From NCBI GenBank assembly GCA_049515895.1, contig JBEKTQ010000001.1, forward strand, positions 1 through 64,000: a stretch of 64,000 bases of DNA. Reading direction: 5' to 3'. Positions 3,265-42,814 of this stretch are shown here, piece after piece; position 1 is the first letter of the stretch; each line of letters starts with the position of its first letter. The notes under the pieces were generated by a model, which saw only the letters and a list, made by a program, of their open reading frames with translations, was not told the DNA's origin and ran no database searches. Both the position numbers and the translations under genes were made by a program. Source of the stretch: Candidatus Bathyarchaeia archaeon. GTDB taxonomy: Archaea; Thermoproteota; Bathyarchaeia; Bathyarchaeales; Bathycorpusculaceae.

Positions 3265-6200
3265 ATGAAAGAAAAAAGCGAAACTAGAAGAGGAATAGCT
3301 GGAATTGGCTCCGTTAGGGCCAAACAGCGACACAACAATAATCAGAAAATCGAAAATATTGAGCAATCAAAAAACGAAGAACTCGGAATCATAACAGTTG
3401 TTCCAACAAAGTCTAGACCTGCACTCCTAGAGAAGGCACTCATGAGCGTTGCAGAGCAAACTCGACCCCCTAACGAACTAATAATTGTTGGAGAACAAGC
3501 AACAGATTTTCCTTCGAACAAAAGAATTATAGAAAAAAAACTCATTGATACAAAAATTCACTGGCTTCTAAATGCAAGAACAAAAAACCTTTCTGGCTCA
3601 ATAAACACGGCAGTACAATTCCTCATTAGCGAAGGAATAAACCCGTATTCGACGTACCTTGCGTTATTAGATGACGATGACTTATGGGAGTCAGGATACC
3701 TCCAAACGGCGTATGAACAACTCATCAAAGGGAACAAGGATCTGGTCATCTCAGGGATTATCCGCCATAATACAAGAAACGACGTAGGAATCAAGCAAAC
3801 TATACCCAACTATATCGACCAAAAGATGTTTCTAACGGGCAACCCCCACATTCAAGGGTCAAATCTCTTTGTGAAAATGAGCACTTTCCTCAGAGCAGGA
3901 GGATTTGATGAAAACCTGCCAAGCACCACAGATCGAGATTTCATGACCCGTGCGCTGGACTTAGGAGATATAACTTATGCAAGTACTGGCAAGCATCTAG
4001 TTCATCATTACGCCGACCTACCAAATCGCCTTTCAACCTACGGTTCCGAAGCCAAAATCACAGGGCTAACTCGCTTTTTCCAGAAGTATAAAGATAGAAT
4101 GACAAACGAAGAAATACTGCAATTCAAGCAAAGAGCAACAAACCTCTTCGGATGGACAGAAACAGCAGCCGAAAAAGAAACGACTCCCTTAAACATTCCA
4201 ACCCCAACAATAGGGAAAACCACGCACAAATTTCATTTAACCATCGGCTTTACTGTTTCCCACCTATCATGCGCTAGCAAACTTATGCAAGACCTCGAAA
4301 GCTTTCAGAAAAACTTCCCACAACCTATCTCACTGGTGATTTTAGACAACACCGGAACGCCAAAACTGCTACAACAAATAATCCAAGCAAACAAATCGAG
4401 CTTCTACACAATCAGAATTATTCCTGAAGGTGAAGTTGAGAAAGACGCTCAAGCAGGCAAACTAGGGACATTTTACATAAGTAAAGAACGGAGGAAAGGA
4501 CCAAGCTTCGGGAGAACAGCACTTCACCGGTATCTGTACCTGACAGGCATGGAACTTGAAAAACCCGTCTTCTGGATACTCGACGACGATGTTAGAATAG
4601 ACAGAATATACTACGCTTCTAATTGTCAAACAATTACTCCAGCCCAATTTGCACAAATCTTAGGGTACTTGCTTGAAAAGAAAATCGCTATTTCTGTCGG
4701 GGGTATAATGGGAGACCCTCCTTTGCCAATAGCCTGTTCAACCCGCGGGCAATTACTTGAACTTAACAACTACCTTAGAAGCTACCGTTCAAACAAGACT
4801 CCTGAGAAAGAAGCAAACACAGACGCGATTGCACAAAAGTTCCCCGACCAATATTACGATCTATCAATTAATTACTACAACCATTTGGAAACTCCAGTCA
4901 AATCTTTTCTAAATCGCCGGAATAGGGATTTTACTATCTCTCAAGGTATCGATGCACTTCTGGAAGGCAAAAACCTGCTTAGACCATCGTTGCCCTGCAA
5001 AGGTGAGAACAAGATGCGAGGAGGCAACACAATCGTGACAGACATTGAATGCCTTCGAACCTACCCTAACTGTTCCCCCAGAATAAACGGGATTGAAACA
5101 AGGAGGGGCGACACCATCTGGGTAGAACTGAACCGATACCTCGGAGGGGAAATGGTTGGCAAAGAAAACAAACAAGTCATCAGCCTCCCCTTATTTCTTA
5201 AACAAGAACGAGCGCCAACATTCAAACCAAAACTGCTAAGCAATTCACTAGCAGCCGACCTTCTAGGCGGAGCCTTTGTCAGAGCATTAACTGACCTGAT
5301 AAAAACGAAAAACGAAATCGGCAAAGAGGCAATGGACATCGGCGACGCCCTTGCTTTCTCCAAAGAAGACTGCCAAAGAGTAATTGCTGAAACCACCCAA
5401 AATCTCGAACGACGAAAAGCCATTCTAATAATGAGCGCATGGAGAATAAGCGGTCTTATTCAAACAATCGAGCACCAAATCAACAGCGACAACTTCGCCG
5501 CAACCACATTGAACCAAAATGAGGTGAACCAACTAGAGGCAGTTCTTGATTGGATCCAACAAGAGATATCAGTTAGAGATGTAACCGAGTTCTGCCAAAA
5601 ATTGAAAAACGGGTTGAATGAAGGCATAAGCCAATATCTCCTCGAATACAAAAGAAACAGACAGCAATTCTCAAGCGACCTCAACCTCGAACCGACCAAA
5701 GTACAAGACAAAATCGCTCAAAAACTCATTCAAAAGCACTTCGGCGTTACCTCAGTTGAGTTGATCGGTCAAGGACAAGAAGGGTTAGTGTACAGCGATG
5801 GCAGCAAGGCATACAAGTACTTCATCAGCAACAGATTCCAAAGGAAAGTCGGATTGCTTGATCTTATTAAGAATAAGCTGAACGCGTCTGCACATCTTAG
5901 GCGCATCGTAACGATAGAAAACATCATTGTGGAAGGAAATCAGGTGTTGCTGAGAATGCCCTTGATAGAAGGTAACCATTACTCAGGCGGCAGGATAAAC
6001 GAAATCCTTGAATTTCTGAGAGAATGCAAGGAAACTGGTATAGTTACTACGAACATTTGGCCAGAAAACCTAATCGTTGGCAAAAACGGTTTGGTTTACG
6101 TAGACATCGGCAGAAGCATTGCTCCTTATCAGGAAAACCTCTTCAACGAGATGTGCAAAAGAGCTTTTCTTACTTACCGATGGCATTTCAGACCTGACCT

Positions 6201-8496
6201 GAAAGAACTGCTAACAAAAAGCCTCTACGAAACAAACATGCCGGAACTTTTCGGATTTGAAGAGTTTAAAAAAGCAATCAAACAAATTGACGTCCACACT
6301 CAAATGGATAAGTACTTGATCAAAGCGTGCCTCAAATCAAAACCCAAGAGAGTGCTAGACTTTGGCTGCGGAACAGGAGCAATTGCGGACAAGCTCGCAG
6401 AAAACGGCTCTGATGTCGACTGCTATGACCCAGATCCTACAAGGTTCACCATCCGGCCACATAAACAAACTGTGACCTTGCTATCGGAAGAAGACTTGAA
6501 AAGTCGAATCGAGGCACATCAAAACTACGACTTGGTTTTATGTAATTTAGTGCTCTGCTCAATAGAATCTGAGAATGAAGTCCAACGGACAATGCACAAG
6601 CTTAGAGCTTTAACCTCTCAAAGCGGCAGTGTCATAATTGGGATATGCAACCCGCTCTCAGATGAAGTGAAAACTAGCCCGAGCCAATCAAGAACCATCT
6701 CATCAGAAAACAAATACCACATGCATTATCCGATTACTGAAATTACCCCTAAAGGGAAACAGAGAACAGATTGGCACCGACCCATAAGCTGGTACGTCCA
6801 CCTTGCCCACAAAGCAGGCCTCGAAATAAAAGAAACAATCGAAGTGCCCAGCGTAGACATCGAAAGACTTTCGCCCAGTAGTGACCAAATCCTGCTGGTA
6901 CTTCAACCCATACAAAGACCCAAACAAACCAAAACCGTCTCACTCATGATTAAAGCCAGCGGAATGGAATGGCAAACCATAGAAAAACAAGTTAAGCACA
7001 TCGTCTCGCAACTTGAGGGACCACAAGAATTCTTCGAAAAAATTCTCGTCACAGATAACGCAACAGTAGGGTTCGCAAGGCAATATTCAACCGTGAACTT
7101 GGAGAAGTTCCAACAAGCTCTTCAAAAACTCGTAAATGATCATCTAATTGATCGAGTAATATCAGCTCCGACAGATGAGAATGAGATCAAGCAAATTTAC
7201 GTCAAATGGTTCGGAGTAGAGTGCTCCAAGCCCAGAGCAATCAACGGACAACCTACCTACATGACACTCTACGGACTCGACCAATGCAAAGGCGACTACG
7301 TGCTACAAACTGACTGCGACTGCATTTTCTTCCGATGTGAACGTTCAAACGATTACCTTAGAGAAATGGTCCATCTCTTTGAAAGCGACCCCACGGCTGT
7401 AACCGTAGCTTTGCCAATTTCGTACAAAGAAACTCAACCTTACAAAAAAGAAAACGAAAACAAACCCTTCCGAGTCGAAGTCAGATGCTGCCTACTAAAC
7501 ATGGCAAAGCTGAAGTCAATGCTGCCGTTGAAAAATGAAACACAAAACAACCAACTAAAACTGCCCTGGCATCGAATCTTGGACCTAGCTATTCAGGAAG
7601 GAAAAGCTAGTTCTTATCGAGTAGGAAACCCTCAAACATGCTTCGTTCACGTTCCAAACTTTAGAAAAACCGACACCAACGATTGGATGAGCATAATCGA
7701 CGCAGCAGAAGCAGGGTCGATGATTCCACAGCAATTAAACAATATACAGATAGTTGGAGAAGCGGCAGACTGGCTGGGCAAAAGAAACGAGGAAATGATA
7801 ATACTCATGCGCGGAAGAAATGTTCCTCTATCCAAAATACGCCGCTGTGTAGAGTCGTTGCAAGCTCAGTCTTTCAAAGATTGGTCAGCAGTAATAATTG
7901 ACGCAAGCTCTTCAAACGGCCATGAAGAACTCTTCAAATATACGCTCAAAAACACATTTGGCGACAAAGTAACCTATGTGCACAACCACGTTCTAATGAG
8001 CCCGATGGAAAACATAGACTACGTAACTAGCAGCATATGTACAAACCCGCAATCTATCATCGTCCACTTAGACCTGGATGACGCCCTTATCGGAACAGAC
8101 GCTTTAAACAAGGTCAAAGAAGCATACCAGAAGGGAGCTGACGTCACGGTCGGGTCAATGCTTCGAACAGACAAGCAAACAGAATACAAAGTTACCTTCC
8201 AAAGCCCGCGAGAGAACAGAGGGGGAAACATCTGGCAGCATCTCAGAACCTACCGTAAACACCTCTATGACAGAGTGCCCAAAGACTATTTCCAAATAGA
8301 TGGCGGATGGGTTAAACACGGCGAGGATTGGGCGTTCATGATACCAATAGCCGAACTAGCCAAAAAACCCGTGCAGATCAAAGACAAAGTATACTTTTAT
8401 GAACCATCAGAAGATAAACCAAACAGAAACGTTGACGAAAGAGAAAGGCTTATCGCTAAAATCATTGATAAGCCATCCTTGGAGAATCTAAATTGA
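3265..8496 (+). CDS. Giant multidomain protein: GT2 + GT-A-like + protein-kinase-like + class I SAM methyltransferase + GT-A-like + GT2
   Basis: LLDDDDLW/GGFDENL (GT2); WILDDDV; LIGQGQEGLVY..AYK..NIWPEN..VDIG (kinase fold); VLDFGCGTG (MTase); LQTDCDC; HLDLDDAL/EDWAF (GT2); no obvious TM helix. Confidence 0.85.
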   Translation: MKEKSETRRGIAGIGSVRAKQRHNNNQKIENIEQSKNEELGIITVVPTKSRPALLEKALMSVAEQTRPPNELIIVGEQATDFPSNKRIIEKKLIDTKIHWLLNARTKNLSGSINTAVQFLISEGINPYSTYLALLDDDDLWESGYLQTAYEQLIKGNKDLVISGIIRHNTRNDVGIKQTIPNYIDQKMFLTGNPHIQGSNLFVKMSTFLRAGGFDENLPSTTDRDFMTRALDLGDITYASTGKHLVHHYADLPNRLSTYGSEAKITGLTRFFQKYKDRMTNEEILQFKQRATNLFGWTETAAEKETTPLNIPTPTIGKTTHKFHLTIGFTVSHLSCASKLMQDLESFQKNFPQPISLVILDNTGTPKLLQQIIQANKSSFYTIRIIPEGEVEKDAQAGKLGTFYISKERRKGPSFGRTALHRYLYLTGMELEKPVFWILDDDVRIDRIYYASNCQTITPAQFAQILGYLLEKKIAISVGGIMGDPPLPIACSTRGQLLELNNYLRSYRSNKTPEKEANTDAIAQKFPDQYYDLSINYYNHLETPVKSFLNRRNRDFTISQGIDALLEGKNLLRPSLPCKGENKMRGGNTIVTDIECLRTYPNCSPRINGIETRRGDTIWVELNRYLGGEMVGKENKQVISLPLFLKQERAPTFKPKLLSNSLAADLLGGAFVRALTDLIKTKNEIGKEAMDIGDALAFSKEDCQRVIAETTQNLERRKAILIMSAWRISGLIQTIEHQINSDNFAATTLNQNEVNQLEAVLDWIQQEISVRDVTEFCQKLKNGLNEGISQYLLEYKRNRQQFSSDLNLEPTKVQDKIAQKLIQKHFGVTSVELIGQGQEGLVYSDGSKAYKYFISNRFQRKVGLLDLIKNKLNASAHLRRIVTIENIIVEGNQVLLRMPLIEGNHYSGGRINEILEFLRECKETGIVTTNIWPENLIVGKNGLVYVDIGRSIAPYQENLFNEMCKRAFLTYRWHFRPDLKELLTKSLYETNMPELFGFEEFKKAIKQIDVHTQMDKYLIKACLKSKPKRVLDFGCGTGAIADKLAENGSDVDCYDPDPTRFTIRPHKQTVTLLSEEDLKSRIEAHQNYDLVLCNLVLCSIESENEVQRTMHKLRALTSQSGSVIIGICNPLSDEVKTSPSQSRTISSENKYHMHYPITEITPKGKQRTDWHRPISWYVHLAHKAGLEIKETIEVPSVDIERLSPSSDQILLVLQPIQRPKQTKTVSLMIKASGMEWQTIEKQVKHIVSQLEGPQEFFEKILVTDNATVGFARQYSTVNLEKFQQALQKLVNDHLIDRVISAPTDENEIKQIYVKWFGVECSKPRAINGQPTYMTLYGLDQCKGDYVLQTDCDCIFFRCERSNDYLREMVHLFESDPTAVTVALPISYKETQPYKKENENKPFRVEVRCCLLNMAKLKSMLPLKNETQNNQLKLPWHRILDLAIQEGKASSYRVGNPQTCFVHVPNFRKTDTNDWMSIIDAAEAGSMIPQQLNNIQIVGEAADWLGKRNEEMIILMRGRNVPLSKIRRCVESLQAQSFKDWSAVIIDASSSNGHEELFKYTLKNTFGDKVTYVHNHVLMSPMENIDYVTSSICTNPQSIIVHLDLDDALIGTDALNKVKEAYQKGADVTVGSMLRTDKQTEYKVTFQSPRENRGGNIWQHLRTYRKHLYDRVPKDYFQIDGGWVKHGEDWAFMIPIAELAKKPVQIKDKVYFYEPSEDKPNRNVDERERLIAKIIDKPSLENLN

Positions 8497-38133: not shown

Positions 38134-38418
38134 TTGGAAAAAAGCATGATGAAATATCAAGTTTTAGTCAAAACGATTTCAGGAAAGGGCGGCGAGTTTT
38201 GGGAAGTGTTCCAAAAGATGCCTACCGAGCCGATGAAAGGAGTAATGGTCGAGTCTTCTTGGAGCTTGTTCGGATACTGGGATTTCGTCATTTTCTTCAA
38301 AGCGGACAGCAATGAAAATAGCCTGCACTTCGTAGGCGAGGTCTTACGAGCGATACCTGGCATCGCCGAAACTAGCACGTCACCCATGACCATTCTCAAA
38401 GAGCACAAGAAGCAATAG
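38134..38418 (+). CDS. Lrp/AsnC ligand-binding (or GYD-like) small domain protein
   Basis: LFGYWDFVI...LRAIPGIAETST. Confidence 0.7.
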   Translation: MEKSMMKYQVLVKTISGKGGEFWEVFQKMPTEPMKGVMVESSWSLFGYWDFVIFFKADSNENSLHFVGEVLRAIPGIAETSTSPMTILKEHKKQ

Positions 38419-38529
38419 GCAACTGTCTTTGCTGTGGTTTCTCACTTTCTTTTTCTTTAAAGTGCATCACGCCTCAAGCCTTGAGTTTCAATAGTTTAAA
38501 ATTAGTATTTCAAAAGAAAAAAAATGAAT

Positions 38530-39009
38530 TCATTTTCCGGTTTCAAACCATCTTTGGAGGTTTGTTTTCTTGATCGCTTTGTATACGGGGTATCCAATGA
38601 CTGTTGATGCAATAAGGTTTCCAACCAAAACATAAGCGAATTCGGCTATTAGTGGTAATCCGTATACGTAACTGAGCATGGCGCCGACAGTGCCTCCCAA
38701 TACTATGGAGTACATTACTGTTCCCGCGATTACGCTTCGGTTCCTTAATTTCCAGATTGCAAAAGCCATGAGGAAGCTAGGAATTGTATTCAGCAAATCA
38801 ATCCAGCCAAGAGGACTAAAGATGTTTGAAATGAAGACTCCAAGCGCGTGTCCAAGTATTCCCGCCCAGCCAAATATCGGAACCAAAGCCACCATCGCGT
38901 CGGCTAACCGCACCTGTACAGGTCCGTAACTAAATGGTCCCAACACGATGACCAGCGCAGCGTAAAGAGAGGCGTAGACTACAGCTACCGCTATCGTTTT
39001 AGTTTTCAT
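38530..39009 (-). CDS. queT: QueT family 7-deazaguanine precursor transporter (likely start MKTKTI at 39009)
   Basis: YAAL..L.PFSYGPVQVRLAD...G..LG..ISN.FSPLG.ID; directly downstream of queC. Confidence 0.85.
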   Translation of the reverse strand: MKTKTIAVAVVYASLYAALVIVLGPFSYGPVQVRLADAMVALVPIFGWAGILGHALGVFISNIFSPLGWIDLLNTIPSFLMAFAIWKLRNRSVIAGTVMYSIVLGGTVGAMLSYVYGLPLIAEFAYVLVGNLIASTVIGYPVYKAIKKTNLQRWFETGK

Positions 39010-39014
39010 CTTTT

Positions 39015-39776
39015 TCACCGAGCGTACTTGCTCGGATCCTGTATTTCTGCGAGTGCAAAAGCTTCCTTTCTCCGTCGGCAGTTGCTGCAGAATCCACAAT
39101 GTACTGGTTCACCTTTTTCGGTCCAATCCCATCCTTGATAACAGCTATACGTGTATAGGTAGTTGACGCCCAACGCCTTTCCTAAGGCAACGACGCCGTC
39201 CTTGTCGACTTCAAGCAAGGGAGCTGAGATTTTGTATCCTCCGAAGTGCGTCGCATGCGCAACGAGTCGATTCATCTCTGCGACGAATTCTGGAGTGTTG
39301 TCCTTCATCGCGACGGGGCCTTCTCTTCTGATTCCTATGTAAACGTCGTAGATGTCGCGTTCCTTTGTCTTGATGTAGCTGTCTAGATCGAAGTGTTCTG
39401 CATGAGCCAGCCCGATAGTCAGCAGCATTGTGTTGCGAACGACATCCCACCAGCGAAGGATCCTGTTTCTTGCTTTTTCAGCATCCCAAATGTCTTCTTT
39501 GGGCGTCTCTGGCACAGGAACGTCGTCTTTGACCAGTAAGCTTGTGGAAAGCTCTTTCATCCATGAGATGTCGATTTCTTTGTAAGTGGCCTTGAAGCCT
39601 TGTTTTTCTAAATCTTCAACTGCTTTCTTGACGCACCAGCGCTCCTCCTTGACCATCCTTTGACCGTAATCGGCATTTATGACCAAGATGGGGTTAGCGC
39701 GAATGACTTTAGCAACGTAATAGAGAGCTGTGACGGAATCAACGCCTCCGCTGCACAGTATCACCGCTTTCCTCAT
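39015..39776 (-). CDS. queC: 7-cyano-7-deazaguanine (preQ0) synthase
   Basis: SGGVDS PP-loop, DYGQR, RN..LL.I, D.TPEF, TYSCY...HCGFCSNC. Confidence 0.9.
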   Translation of the reverse strand: MRKAVILCSGGVDSVTALYYVAKVIRANPILVINADYGQRMVKEERWCVKKAVEDLEKQGFKATYKEIDISWMKELSTSLLVKDDVPVPETPKEDIWDAEKARNRILRWWDVVRNTMLLTIGLAHAEHFDLDSYIKTKERDIYDVYIGIRREGPVAMKDNTPEFVAEMNRLVAHATHFGGYKISAPLLEVDKDGVVALGKALGVNYLYTYSCYQGWDWTEKGEPVHCGFCSNCRRRKEAFALAEIQDPSKYAR

Positions 39777-39895
39777 GTTTTCACCTCACAAAAGGACAAA
39801 GAATACAGAAATCGTTGGGCTAAAATTTTGATTTGGACCATGCGCAAAATGGCAAAAGCATTCGATATTGCATTTTCTGTTTTTTCGTTTTTCAA
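39773..39895 (-). CDS. Putative 40-aa leader ORF translationally coupled to queC
   Basis: GGAGG 7 nt before TTG; stop overlaps the queC start (ATGA). Confidence 0.4.
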   Translation of the reverse strand: MKNEKTENAISNAFAILRMVQIKILAQRFLYSLSFCEVKT

Positions 39896-39902
39896 ATTTT
39901 TT

Positions 39903-39960
39903 CCTCCTACTCCGGGTTTTATTATGGCGGAACGGATGGAGGCCCACTCACCCGCCATGT
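39903..39960 (-). promoter_or_regulatory. Candidate preQ1-I-like riboswitch (H-type pseudoknot) in the queC-queT leader
   Basis: AUGGCGG-[GUGAGUGGGCCUCCAUCCGUU]-CCGCCAU-AAUAAAA-CCC-GGAGUA-GGAGG; TATA box TTTAAAAA at 39991-39984. Confidence 0.5.
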
Positions 39961-40162
39961 TTTCAGATGTTACAGAAGGGGCATTTTTAAACTTTGGGTT
40001 CAGGGGATTGGAATGGTTCAATGATTAAGTTGGGAAAGTATTGTCTGTGATGGGCGGAAGGGTCTGAACTGTGATGGCATTAGATTTTGATGAGATTATT
40101 CATTGCTTTTAAAAACTAAAAAAAGAGAAAGGAAAGGTTTTGTTATTCCCTTAATTCCTTAC

Positions 40163-42814
40163 TTATGGTCTTTTTCTCTGCATCAGAATTGCTAGTACGG
40201 CGATCCCTATGATTAATACGATGATTATTGCGATGACTCCGTACATGAGTGTGGTTTGTGTAGCTATTCCGCTAAGTGGCGTTGCCGTTGGTGCCTGTGT
40301 TGGTGCTGCAGCGCTAGCATAGAAGCCGGTGGAATCGGAAGATCCATAATAAGAACTTGAACCTGCAAACGTGGCGTACACAGTGTAGTTGCCTGCGATG
40401 TCGGGGGACCATGTAAACGCATAGTTGCCCAAAGCATTAGTCGTAGTTGTTCCGATTACTCTGTAGTTGTTATTTGAGTCTAAGACGGATAATGTAACTG
40501 GAACTCCAGTAATGTTGTTTGGCATTACCTGCTGCTCGTAAACAGCTTCCATGAACTGAGTCATACTTGCGTCAGAGACGGCTGGCAGTCCATTTGGGAA
40601 GTCTGATGCGACTGCCTCTTGTTTAGAGCCAGCAGAAACATCCCTCACTGAACCCGTTAGGGTTATTGGTGTAGCGGTTGTGACTCCGACGTCCGGAGCG
40701 TTAACTGTGGTTTTGCTCGGTCCTTGACCGAAGCAGTAGATTTGGTTGTCGTATGCATTTGCCACTACTAAGTATCCGTCTGCAAGCGCTGTGGAAGGAT
40801 TATTCGAATCTGGAAATTCAAGTATGCTCCATACTTCTTTTCCTGTGGCAGCGTTCAAGCAGTATAGTTGAGCTCCGCTGAATAGCGGCGGACTGTATTC
40901 ATGGCCGCCCATGACATAGAGATATCCGCCCCCTACGGCGTTGAGATACCAGATGGGGAAAATGTTATACGGAGTTGCATATGTGCCGTTTCCAGTGTTC
41001 CAAGTCCACATGAGAGCTCCAGTTGTAGCATTCATTGCGTAAACGTAGCCGCCTAAGTCCCCTGTAAACACTGTGTCGTAAGCTATGAGTGTACCTGTCT
41101 GGTATGAACCCCATTCGTCTCCTGTCGCGTTTAAGTATTCAGGGCCCCAGAGCTGTTTTCCCGTTGCACTACTGAAGGCGTTTAATGACAGCGATTCCAA
41201 ATAGACTTCTGTGTAAATTCCATTGTTAGCACCGTTAGCTGCTGACTGTCTTGAGAACGGCGTTACGGTTCGGTTAACTATCCATTGCTGTGCGCCATTA
41301 GTTAAGCTGTAGCCTGATTCGATTTGCCATGAAGTCCAACCAAGTTGGCCTGACCCAACTACAGCTGGGATGCTGTATAAAACGAGATTGTTGCCAGTAA
41401 AGTCCGGATAAGTAGGATAGCTAAGCGCCGGAGAGATAGCCACTGCTGTTCCGTTTGGTTCAGTAAAGGTAGTAGCTACTGGTGCTGCCCACATTATGCC
41501 TGATGACCATTGGATACTTGATCCTTGCACGGGTCTCCACTGCCAGCTTACTGCAGTGACTCCTGGGAAGTAGCCATTAGGATACTGAATTGCTTCGGAA
41601 GAGTTCCAACACTCAAGCATTCGACCGCCAGTAGGAGTGGTGACACGTGTCCCTTGGATTATCTGTGTGCCCGCGGTGGCGTTAACGTAGTAAGCTATCA
41701 TGTCCCCATTTGGATCGTTGATAAACTGGATACCTCCAGGACTATTGATAATATTCAATATCCAGTTGCCGGTCATGCCGTCGTACATCGACCACGTAGT
41801 GCCTAGATTGCCCCACAAGTATACGAGTCCTCCGTACTGATTTGGCGTTACGTAGTCAAGAACTTGACCGCATCTGAGTTGTGTTGTAGTTATGTTCTGT
41901 TCCCATAGCATTTTTCCCGTGAATAGGTCAATAGCTATCCAACCTTCAAGGCTTGTTGAAGCGCCCGGGTATGAATCGTAGTAGAGTACTCCGTTTATGA
42001 CAATTGGCGGTGCAAGTTTAGGTTCATACTGCGACGCAGAGTAATAGTTGGTGTATTCACTTGAGCCTGGAGGACTTCCATAGTTGCCTCCAATTAACCC
42101 TCCGATGGCAAACGGCGTTGTCCACATTATGTGTGCTGTTGAGGGACCAGTTGTGTACGGATTAAAGTCTTCGCTGGCATTGTAAACACTATTAAGTCTT
42201 AGCCCGAGTCCGTTTCCGAGCCAGTTTCCGGCAAGGTTGTACCAGGCAGTGTTCATTGCAAAAACTGGTGTCTGCCAGTAGCTTGTTGGAAGCGGGGTTG
42301 ATGGGTAGTTTGCTATCGGCGTCTGCTGAACATTCAAGTACTCTGTACTGCTAGTGCAAGGTTCAAAATAATCTCCGATTGATCCAGGATTGCTGGTGCC
42401 TGATGGTGCCGGATTCGCACCTGTTATTGTTTGGCCTGGAAAGCTGAAGACGAAGCCGTAGGTGCCGACTGTTGTAGGTATGTACGTAGTGTATGTTCCG
42501 CCTGTATCATCAGATATAAATGGCCCCAAGGTCTGGGTGGTTCCGTCAGGCTTTGTAACTGTAACTTTGAGGTTCTGCCATTCGTCGCCGTAAGCTCCGT
42601 TGGCCGTTGGCGTTGGCTTGTCGACCCACATGTTAATGTATGCTGTTTGACCGACTCCAATAGGGCTAGGTCCAACGTTAATGAAGCCGTATGTCGTTAT
42701 GTTTAGCCCAACTGTTGCTTTGGCGTTTTGTAAAAGCATCGTTGAAGCTCCCATTGAAATTGTTAATATTGCTGCAATCAAAATAGCGATAGTTCTACTT
42801 TTTAGCGATTTCAT
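40163..42814 (-). CDS. Secreted PQQ-like beta-propeller / Ig-like surface protein with C-terminal membrane anchor
   Basis: Signal peptide; A.DL.TGK.LW, NATTGALMW, LNAATGKEVW repeats; C-terminal TM + RKRP. Confidence 0.88.
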   Translation of the reverse strand: MKSLKSRTIAILIAAILTISMGASTMLLQNAKATVGLNITTYGFINVGPSPIGVGQTAYINMWVDKPTPTANGAYGDEWQNLKVTVTKPDGTTQTLGPFISDDTGGTYTTYIPTTVGTYGFVFSFPGQTITGANPAPSGTSNPGSIGDYFEPCTSSTEYLNVQQTPIANYPSTPLPTSYWQTPVFAMNTAWYNLAGNWLGNGLGLRLNSVYNASEDFNPYTTGPSTAHIMWTTPFAIGGLIGGNYGSPPGSSEYTNYYSASQYEPKLAPPIVINGVLYYDSYPGASTSLEGWIAIDLFTGKMLWEQNITTTQLRCGQVLDYVTPNQYGGLVYLWGNLGTTWSMYDGMTGNWILNIINSPGGIQFINDPNGDMIAYYVNATAGTQIIQGTRVTTPTGGRMLECWNSSEAIQYPNGYFPGVTAVSWQWRPVQGSSIQWSSGIMWAAPVATTFTEPNGTAVAISPALSYPTYPDFTGNNLVLYSIPAVVGSGQLGWTSWQIESGYSLTNGAQQWIVNRTVTPFSRQSAANGANNGIYTEVYLESLSLNAFSSATGKQLWGPEYLNATGDEWGSYQTGTLIAYDTVFTGDLGGYVYAMNATTGALMWTWNTGNGTYATPYNIFPIWYLNAVGGGYLYVMGGHEYSPPLFSGAQLYCLNAATGKEVWSILEFPDSNNPSTALADGYLVVANAYDNQIYCFGQGPSKTTVNAPDVGVTTATPITLTGSVRDVSAGSKQEAVASDFPNGLPAVSDASMTQFMEAVYEQQVMPNNITGVPVTLSVLDSNNNYRVIGTTTTNALGNYAFTWSPDIAGNYTVYATFAGSSSYYGSSDSTGFYASAAAPTQAPTATPLSGIATQTTLMYGVIAIIIVLIIGIAVLAILMQRKRP

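Follow-up and report, generated by a model that had tools for sequence, protein, structure and literature searches.

PreQ1-I riboswitches are minimal H-type pseudoknots of ∼34 nt, with a P2 helix of 3–4 bp, an L1 of 2–3 nt, an A-rich linker after P1, and a Shine-Dalgarno sequence (SD) in the P2 3′ strand; in the preQ1-II fold, the SD is hidden in a pseudoknot helix. Bacterial preQ1 riboswitches are described as standing before queT (PMC5372724).

According to a 2017 survey, hardly any of the known riboswitch classes are used by archaea, and most of what is used belongs to TPP and fluoride, which are shared with bacteria (PMC5473149); a 2014 transcriptome paper stated that riboswitch regulation in vivo had not yet been shown in archaea (PMC4247193). 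A literature search for archaeal or Bathyarchaeial preQ0/preQ1 riboswitches returned only papers on sRk28, a conserved archaeal RNA of ∼70 nt, comprising a hairpin and a putative pseudoknot, which is called a ‘putative preQ1 riboswitch’ in Pyrococcus abyssi and Thermococcus kodakarensis (PMC3124441, PMC4247193). The same accounts place sRk28 beside the QueC-like gene PAB1992 and describe it as unvalidated and regulated by growth phase; the T. kodakarensis RNA is reported as a small orphan transcript (PMC4247193).

Here we analyze a 64,000-nt stretch of a Candidatus Bathyarchaeia genome (‘the window’), in which an earlier note had proposed a preQ0/preQ1 riboswitch with a coupled leader ORF upstream of queC and queT. 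The leader at this locus is probably a cis-acting, ligand-sensing element, a riboswitch candidate that would govern translation of genes for 7-deazaguanine (preQ0) supply.

The queC–queT leader in the window

All features of the locus lie on the minus strand; promoter, loop and tail were read from the sequence, and the P2 pairs from the columns of alignment A3.

39984–39998, minus strand: BRE/TATA-like promoter, CCCAAAG 5′ of the TATA-like box TTTAAAAA
39991–39984, minus strand: the TATA-like box itself
39952–39958, minus strand: P1 5′ strand, AUGGCGG (core GGCGG at 39956–39952), pairing with 39930–39924
39951–39931, minus strand: 21-nt loop within the 7-bp stem
39943–39951, minus strand: L1, GUGAGU followed by GGG, mostly invariant and unpaired
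39933–39942, minus strand: P2 5′ strand, anti-SD CCUCC, then A, U and CCG, pairing with 39914–39903 as a pseudoknot
39931–39932, minus strand: L2, UU, nearly invariant, joining P2 to the P1 3′ strand
39924–39930, minus strand: P1 3′ strand, CCGCCAU, pairing with the P1 5′ strand
39915–39923, minus strand: L3, A-rich linker ending in AAA-N-CC (from the alignment), here AAUAAAACC
39907–39903, minus strand: GGAGG, following the tail AAUAAAACCC 3′ of the stem
39903–39914, minus strand: P2 3′ strand, CGG, bulged A, GU, bulged A, GGAGG (SD)
39942–39903, 39941–39904, 39940–39905, 39939–39906 and 39938–39907, minus strand: P2 pairs
39937–39909, 39936–39910, 39935–39912, 39934–39913 and 39933–39914, minus strand: further P2 pairs
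39773–39895, minus strand: 40-codon ORF (TTG 39895–39893; TGA 39775–39773)
39015–39776, minus strand: queC, 7-cyano-7-deazaguanine synthase family (Pfam QueC, E 1.4e-36, 126 bits)
38530–39009, minus strand: queT, ECF S-component of the queuosine-precursor transporter family (Pfam QueT, E 7.1e-25)

Checked against the sequence, the stem, loop, A-rich tail, SD, 40-codon ORF and overlap with queC all lie where the earlier note had put them. The TGA of the 40-codon ORF (39775–39773) shares bases with the queC ATG (39776–39774) in an ATGA overlap. The queC product scores 96.8 bits against NCBIfam TIGR00364, below the cut-off of 150.3, and is the sole clear QueC in its genome. The Pfam match for QueT was taken on 38530–39099, and the queT feature is limited by its likely start, the ATG at 39009, 5 nt past the queC stop; this is the only QueT in the genome, in which TGT, QueC and QueT are all present, while a search for QueF found none and nothing qualifies convincingly as QueE.

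The TATA-like 8-mer begins 35 nt 5′ of the GGCGG of P1. An upstream 8-mer matching TTTAWATA at no fewer than 6 of 8 positions is present in 172 of 209 unique upstream regions, and begins at −37 to −30 in 98 of these 172. Because the TATA-like box lies ∼35 nt upstream, the element would stand at the 5′ end of the message; transcription would start 0–7 nt 5′ of P1. No terminator-like site was found in 38300–40200. A C/D-box-like match on the plus strand (40043–40095) was set aside, being under threshold and without conservation.

Conservation, pairing and gene context

A DNA search matched the region ∼39957–39891 of the window in 39 of 61 related genomes; the neighbouring intergenic region 40025–40115 was matched in 1 of 41, the window's own alone. 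By this comparison, conservation of the element is far beyond chance. Within the window's order, model R1 matches 116 of 151 genomes, belonging to 53 of 63 genera and 12 of 12 families; the window's own genome has a single true copy, which scores 82.3 bits, against 17.7 bits for the runner-up. In a sample of the phylum, 30 of 151 genomes are matched, of which 17 belong to other classes. Matches were also obtained in 18 of 81 genomes of a second phylum, to which a record with an Asgard title (Promethearchaeati) belongs, 10 of these at E≤1.3e-7. Archaeal genomes with the element number in the hundreds. The motif is also present on two contigs binned as bacterial (L223, whose element is canonical, and L224); apart from these and three bacterial DNA-pattern matches dropped as chance (L198, L249 and L258, which lack P1 and QueT), all records found to have it were archaeal. 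Weak model matches before a HAD hydrolase (L279) and unknown membrane proteins (L277, L278) were excluded as members, as were a partial match (L138) and L139; locus L270 was left out of the analysis.

Single-sequence folding of the leader is unremarkable: the 81-nt fold of the window hairpin gave z = −0.20 against shuffles (76 of 200 fold as well or better), and the 206-nt leader fold gave z = +1.03. The weight of the element comes from its conservation, not from single-sequence folding. Across 150 diverse sequences, P1 and P2 are 92.9% paired vs. 85.1% after shuffling, a level that 0 of 500 shuffles reach, although the sequences are related and such shuffle controls therefore overstate the evidence; slid-helix controls gave 39–57% pairing. 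Two-sided changes occur at 14 of the 19 P1 and P2 pairs in this set. The five core pairs of P1 are 98.1% paired (95.1% with an optional sixth outer pair), the outer core pair being GC in 117 sequences, GU in 9, UA in 9, AU in 3 and CG in 1, and the inner pair GC in 145 and CG in 2. On A3, P2 is 91.8% paired with two-sided changes at 10 of 13 pairs, its CCG:CGG part being invariant and hence uninformative for covariation. Mutual information ranks P2 24–75 and 25–74 and P1 3–39 among the top column pairs, together with register-shifted versions of those P2 columns; a single coordinated register shift of 1 nt accounts for many of the two-sided changes at 24–75 and 25–74. Loop:SD duplexes have a mean energy of −13.0 kcal/mol when cognate and −11.3 when not (the cognate mean being reached in 0 of 5000 permutations), a complementarity that could partly reflect merely a conserved SD. 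Diverged lineages rewrite both P2 strands (UUCCGACCCG with CGGUGUCGGAA; CCACCCCCG with CGGGCGGUGG). Pairing in P1 and P2 is kept by compensatory changes across two archaeal phyla, and this covariation supports an RNA able to form an H-type pseudoknot of ∼56 nt from the two helices.

The comparison of leaders across relatives, which the earlier note had suggested, thus supports P1 and P2, and covariation bears out the H-type topology with an A-rich linker that it had proposed; the loop CCUCC that it took for an anti-SD does pair with the SD, as part of P2. Its drawing of P2 as loop GGG with tail CCC has to be given up: these positions are 80.8% paired, with no compensatory change and the third pair unpaired in 66 cells, and the G run is absent in several members though CCC persists. 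The real P2 joins the 3′ half of the loop to CGG…SD.

Several parts of the fold vary among members. P1 is 5–7 bp long. In L1, GURRGU is nearly invariant, the GG(G) 3′ of it is missing in four members (L009, L098, L112, L120), an insert is variable and dispensable, and the span is 6–20 nt; we regard L1 as a candidate part of a ligand pocket. P2 is a helix of 10–13 bp between the loop 3′ half (anti-SD, A, Y, CCG) and CGG, a short spacer and the SD (window duplex −14.4 kcal/mol, RNAduplex). In A3, L2 never departs from U at its second position and has U at its first in at least 90% of the 150 sequences; L137 has AU. L3 spans 12–25 nt, differing in length in its upstream part; in nearly all members AAA and CC are retained, with A, C or U at the single position between them. 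One group (L133, L134, L137, L275) is without the tail GG. Since the candidate pocket bases never vary, their contacts are unreadable from covariation. An inner hairpin, GUGG/CCAY, is 94.6% paired, but its changes are all one-sided (G-U) and it cannot coexist with P2; it is possibly the ligand-free state, and cannot form in members without GG.

Two other pairings were rejected. A helix CGGGUG/CACCCG, which would compete with P1, is contradicted by two loci (L020, L099) in which a G to C change is compensated only in P1, and by uncompensated changes in GUAGGU variants; the same two loci contradict pairing of the tail CCCG with the P1 5′ strand.

In a gene-context set of 124 elements, 115 are followed by a first ORF of at least 60 aa, which is Pfam QueT in 114 and QueC in 1, in agreement with the earlier suggestion of a conserved, structured 5′ leader linked to 7-deazaguanine genes. 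The other nine comprise five QueT genes with odd starts or frameshifts, one element off the contig end, one with a 33-aa ORF and then QueT, and two with a short ORF and then QueC. Other operons run QueE-like then QueC (L159, L212), QueE-like then GATase-QueC (L208), and QueC then QueT (L185), and QueT follows at 5 of 6 loci inspected in the second phylum. Going by these annotations, the element is found almost only before queT, queC and queE-like genes. At two loci (L273, L276), a start codon becomes plausible only ∼25 nt past P2, which, like the lack of the tail GG in one group of members, counts against the switch reading.

Comparison with described RNAs and competing explanations

None of 4227 Rfam models identifies the element: no family matched it in the window at gathering scores, no family matched it in 39650–40200 at E≤10, and no match was found at 20 diverse loci at E≤1. 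The Infernal comparison proposed in the earlier note thus went against the known classes, preQ1-I (RF00522), preQ1-II (RF01054) and preQ1-III (RF02680) among them. The element nevertheless resembles preQ1-I in its H-type pseudoknot, its A-rich linker and the SD in its P2 3′ strand. It differs in a bulged P2 of 10–13 bp (3–4 bp in preQ1-I), an L1 of at least 6 and up to 20 nt (2–3 nt in preQ1-I), its ∼56-nt span, L2 UU, the 12–25 nt of L3, other conserved bases and archaeal hosts. With preQ1-II it shares a position before queT (COG4708) and an SD in a pseudoknot helix, a likeness in working, not membership; unlike preQ1-II, it is without a conserved embedded extra hairpin. Location before queC/queT-type genes is described for preQ1-I as well (PMC5372724). 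These common features are what a highly diverged member of class I or II would display, yet the failure of every Rfam model and the dimensions of P2 and L1 make that reading unlikely.

The archaeal fluoride and TPP riboswitches provide precedent for riboswitches in archaea, but both classes are described as shared with bacteria (PMC5473149), whereas the motif analyzed here is essentially archaeal. Like the element, sRk28 is archaeal, with a hairpin and putative pseudoknot adjoining a QueC-like gene (PMC3124441, PMC4247193), and it may be related to the element, perhaps as part of the same family; it differs in being reported as an orphan transcript in T. kodakarensis, while the element is fused to the ribosome-binding site of queT, queC or queE. 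That report (PMC4247193) would favour a mainly stable small RNA acting in trans, as suggested for sRk28. For the element this is very improbable: in the loci examined its 3′ strand either is the ribosome-binding site of the following gene or abuts it directly, and the terminator-like site sought at the window locus was not found.

Three features generally expected of a riboswitch are present (a covariation-supported 5′ leader, association with the genes of one metabolite, and an SD platform within P2). The element is best read as an OFF switch that would act on translation in response to preQ0 or a close 7-deazaguanine; its structural class has no curated family, and ligand binding is the inferred part. 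Of the riboswitch proposal in the earlier note, the conserved pseudoknot leader, the pathway genes and the pairing of the loop with the SD have stood, P2 as drawn has not, and ligand binding keeps its inferred status. Where P1 and P2 meet, the invariant joining bases would make up the ligand pocket; the ligand would be preQ0 (or CDG or preQ1), which QueE and QueC produce and QueT presumably carries. Binding would stabilize P2, hiding the SD and blocking initiation; without ligand, the inner hairpin may hold the anti-SD and so free the SD. In the window, the controlled SD would serve the 40-codon ORF, and the effect could reach queC through the ATGA stop/start overlap, and then queT across the 5-nt gap, by translational coupling.

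Invariant unpaired bases and an SD-hiding helix would be equally expected of a protein-binding translational operator, in which an RNA-binding protein such as a pathway enzyme or dedicated repressor, rather than a small molecule, binds the pseudoknot and its invariant loops. We consider such an operator about as unlikely as a diverged preQ1 class: no candidate regulator gene accompanies the element, its only constant neighbours being QueT, QueC and QueE-like genes, its core is kept across two phyla and differing operon make-ups, and its gene context is that described for bacterial preQ1 riboswitches before queT (PMC5372724). A structure that works independently of ligand, such as a constitutive SD-masking pseudoknot, an RNA thermometer or a stability element, would be in keeping with the unremarkable single-sequence folding, and P2 by itself would reduce initiation; a mask, however, would not require ∼20 invariant unpaired bases kept across phyla, nor be confined to one pathway, and we hold this explanation to be more improbable still, if less so than action in trans.

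For the ligand-sensing leader, we lean somewhat towards a fourth structural class of 7-deazaguanine riboswitch, archaea-specific and sensing preQ0 rather than preQ1, distributed in Bathyarchaeia, Methanomethylicia and relatives, and Asgard, and maybe of one family with sRk28. If so, few archaeal riboswitch classes would be as widespread, and none before it would lack known bacterial members. The motif is a compact RNA whose genes form a clear set, for synthesis and uptake of preQ0, and whose proposed mechanism of SD capture is simple; hundreds of natural variants are at hand for structure work. Should preQ0 be bound, the element would offer a new fold for 7-deazaguanine recognition, reveal archaeal control of archaeosine precursor supply, provide a sensor part compatible with archaeal translation signals, and aid annotation of QueT-based salvage in uncultured lineages of Bathyarchaeia and Asgard archaea.

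The 40-codon leader ORF

The coupled leader ORF of the earlier note is present, with its stop overlapping the queC ATG, but is a local peculiarity: only 2 of the 124 elements have one, those of the window and of G016, where the ORF is 39 codons long and likewise ends in an ATGA overlap. Elsewhere, the SD directly serves queT, queC or queE. A Pfam search of the 40-codon ORF returned no family. The G016 peptide aligns in register with the QueT profile (4.9 bits; 3 of 500 shuffles as good). For the window peptide the score is 0.5 bits, a level matched in 47 of 500 shuffles. Together these scores hint faintly that the leader ORF could be a relic of the queT 5′ end.

The leader of queC and queT in the window

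The leader that precedes queC and queT in the window carries a real, widespread archaeal RNA element of about 56 nt whose fold is supported by covariation; judged from sequence, its anatomy and gene context are those of a riboswitch, with a 7-deazaguanine as candidate ligand. The TATA-like sequence, stem and loop, A-rich tail, GGAGG, TTG-started ORF and ATG overlap described in an earlier note were all recovered at the positions below, and its queC and queT calls are confirmed by Pfam.

Features in the window, all on the minus strand (read from the sequence unless a Pfam match is given)
39991-39984, minus: TATA-like TTTAAAAA
39958-39952 with 39930-39924, minus: perfect 7-bp stem enclosing a 21-nt loop
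3' of the stem, minus: A-rich tail ending in CCC
39907-39903, minus: GGAGG, the Shine-Dalgarno sequence (SD)
From 39895, minus: 40-codon ORF with a TTG start, its TGA overlapping the queC ATG at 39776
39015-39776, minus: queC (Pfam QueC, E 1.4e-36)
Likely ATG at 39009, 5 nt past the queC stop, minus: queT (Pfam QueT, E 7.1e-25)

An 8-mer matching TTTAWATA at six or more of its eight positions is found in 172 of 209 unique upstream regions, starting at -37 to -30 from the stem (P1) in 98 of the 172, and at -35 in the window. Archaeal promoters stand at a standard distance from the start site; from this spacing and the position of the 8-mer, transcription would be expected to begin 0-7 nt 5' of P1. 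The upstream neighbour (40163-42814, minus) encodes a protein of 883 aa, secreted or anchored, whose domains are of the PQQ-like beta-propeller and Ig-like types; it lies outside the queC-queT unit. A C/D-box sRNA-like sequence with an imperfect D box at 40043-40095 (plus) scores below threshold against Rfam sR28 (23.5 bits vs. a gathering score of 39, E 4.9e-4); the intergenic DNA that includes it (40025-40115) had no match in 40 relatives.

Pairing in P1 and the P2 pseudoknot

By itself the window hairpin does not stand out from shuffled sequence: z is -0.20 for the 81-nt fold, with 76 of 200 shuffles folding equally well or better, and +1.03 for the whole leader. Pairing was counted on A3, an alignment of 150 elements picked from 207 unique ones by greedy diversity. 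The five core pairs of P1 are 98.1% paired (outer pair GC 117, GU 9, UA 9, AU 3, CG 1; inner pair GC 145, CG 2), and the helix including an optional sixth pair, which is sometimes present, is 95.1% paired. In the P2 pseudoknot, the 3' half of the loop (anti-SD, A, Y, CCG) pairs with a downstream strand made up of CGG, a 3-5-nt spacer and the SD. Over its 13 columns, 91.8% of P2 is paired, and two-sided change is seen in 10 of the 13 pairs, although many such changes at two central columns represent a single coordinated shift of 1 nt; nothing is proved by the CCG:CGG end, because it never varies. Examples are pairs 29-67 (CG 96, UA 10, UG 5), 28-69 (AU 125, CG 5, GU 2, GC 1), 21-78 (GU 25, CG 17, GC 13, AU 10, UA 8) and 22-77 (CG 57, AU 12, UG 11, GC 4, GU 4, UA 4). 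Compensatory changes maintain the pairing of both helices in two archaeal phyla.

P1 and P2 together are 92.9% paired, vs. 85.1% in shuffles (0 of 500 as high), a control that overstates the evidence because the sequences are related, and 39-57% when partner columns are slid. Mutual information is highest for a set of column pairs to which 24-75 and 25-74 of P2 and 3-39 of P1 belong, together with the same P2 columns in shifted register. For 122 of 124 elements (one unparsed and one misparsed element excluded), loop:downstream duplexes average -13.0 kcal/mol when cognate vs. -11.3 kcal/mol when non-cognate, and none of 5000 permutations reaches the cognate value. P2 exists in 81 distinct helix versions, such as UCAUCUCC with GGAGAUGA; in diverged lineages both strands are rewritten (UUCCGACCCG with CGGUGUCGGAA; CCACCCCCG with CGGGCGGUGG; and, free of bulges, CCCAUCCG with CGGGUGGG). 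Three unpaired segments are almost invariant: GURRGU, which opens L1, the UU of L2, and AAA-N-CC, with which L3 ends. A variable insert in L1 is missing in four loci (L009, L098, L112, L120) and much longer in others.

Distribution and downstream genes

At the DNA level, 39 of 61 related genomes searched gave matches, which in 38 are limited to window positions ~39957-39891 (stem to just beyond the SD); the sole exception, genome G016, also shares the leader ORF. A covariance model built from 20 aligned copies was used for wider searches, and found the element in 116 of 151 genomes of the window's order (84 of 105 high-quality genomes, 53 of 63 genera, 12 of 12 families), usually as one copy per genome; the window's own genome has a single true copy (82.3 bits; runner-up match 17.7 bits). 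In the phylum sample, 30 of 151 genomes were positive, including 17 that belong to other classes. With one genome taken per prokaryotic species, a scan for the exact pattern gave at least 120 matching stretches. Among the matches listed, record titles are almost all Bathyarchaeia or Bathyarchaeota, with a few Methanomethylicota, Methanomethylicus or Methanosuratincola, some labelled Nitrososphaerota, and one 'Promethearchaeati archaeon LC30'. Promethearchaeati is the Asgard kingdom (NCBI taxonomy), and the motif occurs in 3 of 3 genomes of this archaeon's order and in 18 of 81 of its phylum (10 at E <= 1.3e-7). Three matches to bacterial records, among those listed, are due to chance, with neither P1 nor QueT. 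Two further contigs, L223 and L224, lie in bacterial bins; L223, whose element is canonical, has probably been misbinned.

Removal of a partial match (L138) and a spurious one (L139) from 126 loci left the 124 elements of the order sample. The first downstream ORF of at least 60 aa, present in 115, is assigned by Pfam to QueT in 114 and QueC in one; the remaining nine comprise five QueT genes (own profile) with non-canonical starts or frameshifts, one locus running off its contig, one 33-aa ORF followed by QueT, and two (window and G016) with a short ORF followed by QueC. The global scan places QueT downstream in 111 of the 120 stretches listed (directly in 109), a tally that overlaps the order sample in many genomes and hence is not independent of it. 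Of six loci inspected in the phylum of archaeon LC30, five have QueT and the sixth runs off its contig. Other arrangements are element-QueC-QueT (L185); element-radical-SAM protein-QueC (L159, L212), where the best NCBIfam matches of the radical-SAM protein are all QueE models (E 1e-27 to 1e-31, under curated cut-offs); and, in a MAG labelled Nitrososphaerota, element-QueE-like-GATase-QueC fusion (483 aa, L208:5243-6691, plus). From these contexts, the genes behind the element are those of preQ0 synthesis and a presumed precursor importer. At L173 the element precedes a 277-aa protein (5727-6557, minus) with no Pfam or NCBIfam family, then QueC and a PRTase-HTH protein; the gene of the 277-aa protein is a candidate for a new role in the 7-deazaguanine pathway or in transport.

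Automatic start choice for the 124 elements gave TTG 55, GTG 40 and ATG 29, some calls being wrong; queT behind L056, L073, L061 and L077 apparently has a non-canonical start (CTG; possibly ACG or others). QueT frames are frameshifted at L015 (G023:C2) and L056, as pseudogenes or assembly errors.

A short leader ORF before queC is confined to two of the 124 elements, those of the window (40 codons) and G016 (39 codons). Both keep the ATGA overlap with queC, whose own SD sits within the end of the leader ORF, and any control of queC and queT by the element would have to run through translational coupling. The ORF may, tentatively, be a remnant of the queT 5' end, left once queC moved behind the switch.

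Proposed mechanism, ligand and related RNAs

The 3' strand of the pseudoknot is the SD, the joining bases are invariant, and the regulon is one pathway. At the P1/P2 junction the joining bases may create a pocket that takes a guanine-like 7-deazapurine, whose binding would lock P2 and block initiation; unbound RNA may keep the anti-SD in an inner hairpin, GUGG/CCAY, which is 94.6% compatible and mutually exclusive with P2.

The favoured ligand is preQ0, with CDG also possible, because QueE and QueC make preQ0, because archaeal TGT puts preQ0 directly into tRNA for archaeosine, and because the window's genome (rated 100% complete) has TGT (274.7 bits), one QueC and one QueT, as well as a PTPS, with no QueF found. 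No convincing QueE was found there either (best matches 25-33 bits vs. 90-108 bits for QueE-like proteins encoded after the element at other loci); QueT may therefore import CDG or preQ0, which keeps CDG among the candidates, and the gene set suggests salvage of either compound in place of de novo synthesis.

PMC5372724 describes the same direct use of preQ0 by archaeal TGT, and places bacterial preQ1 riboswitches before the same kind of genes, a gene logic (preQ0 synthesis plus presumed importer) that the element shares. Like preQ1-I and preQ1-II, the element is an SD-capturing pseudoknot before queT or queC; unlike them, it matches no Rfam 15 family, whether at gathering scores (window), E <= 10 (region) or E <= 1 (20 diverse loci). 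The element is not curated in Rfam. Among the literature listings searched, none described a preQ0 or preQ1 riboswitch for Bathyarchaeia or Asgard archaea. PMC3124441 reports sRk28 of Pyrococcus abyssi, a conserved RNA of ~70 nt with a hairpin and putative pseudoknot that adjoins the QueC-like PAB1992 and is said to share preQ1-riboswitch features; PMC4247193 confirms its transcription in Thermococcus kodakarensis, as an orphan transcript with riboswitch function unproven. The element resembles sRk28 in these published descriptions (hairpin, putative pseudoknot, QueC-like neighbour); were the two the same, the family would be wider and the claim to a first sighting weaker.

Several loci depart from the canonical form. 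L130 (G180:C3, ~1515-1581, minus), before QueT, has GUUAAU in L1, CCAGUU for CCCGUU and AAAACCUGG in the tail, and may represent either a shift in the register of P2 or a member whose specificity has changed. L277 (G239:C1) and L278 (G188:C1), weak model matches at 28.4 and 22.5 bits, have a P1-like GUCGG/CCGAC, an AAAACCCC tail and the SD GGAGAUGA, and precede two tandem membrane proteins without a Pfam family; their genomes also carry a canonical element before QueT, and the two may belong to a related motif that serves another cargo gene. At L134 (G111:C86), the element and a 33-aa ORF are followed by a second CCGGAGUAGGGAGG module directly before QueT, as if part of the expression platform had been duplicated.
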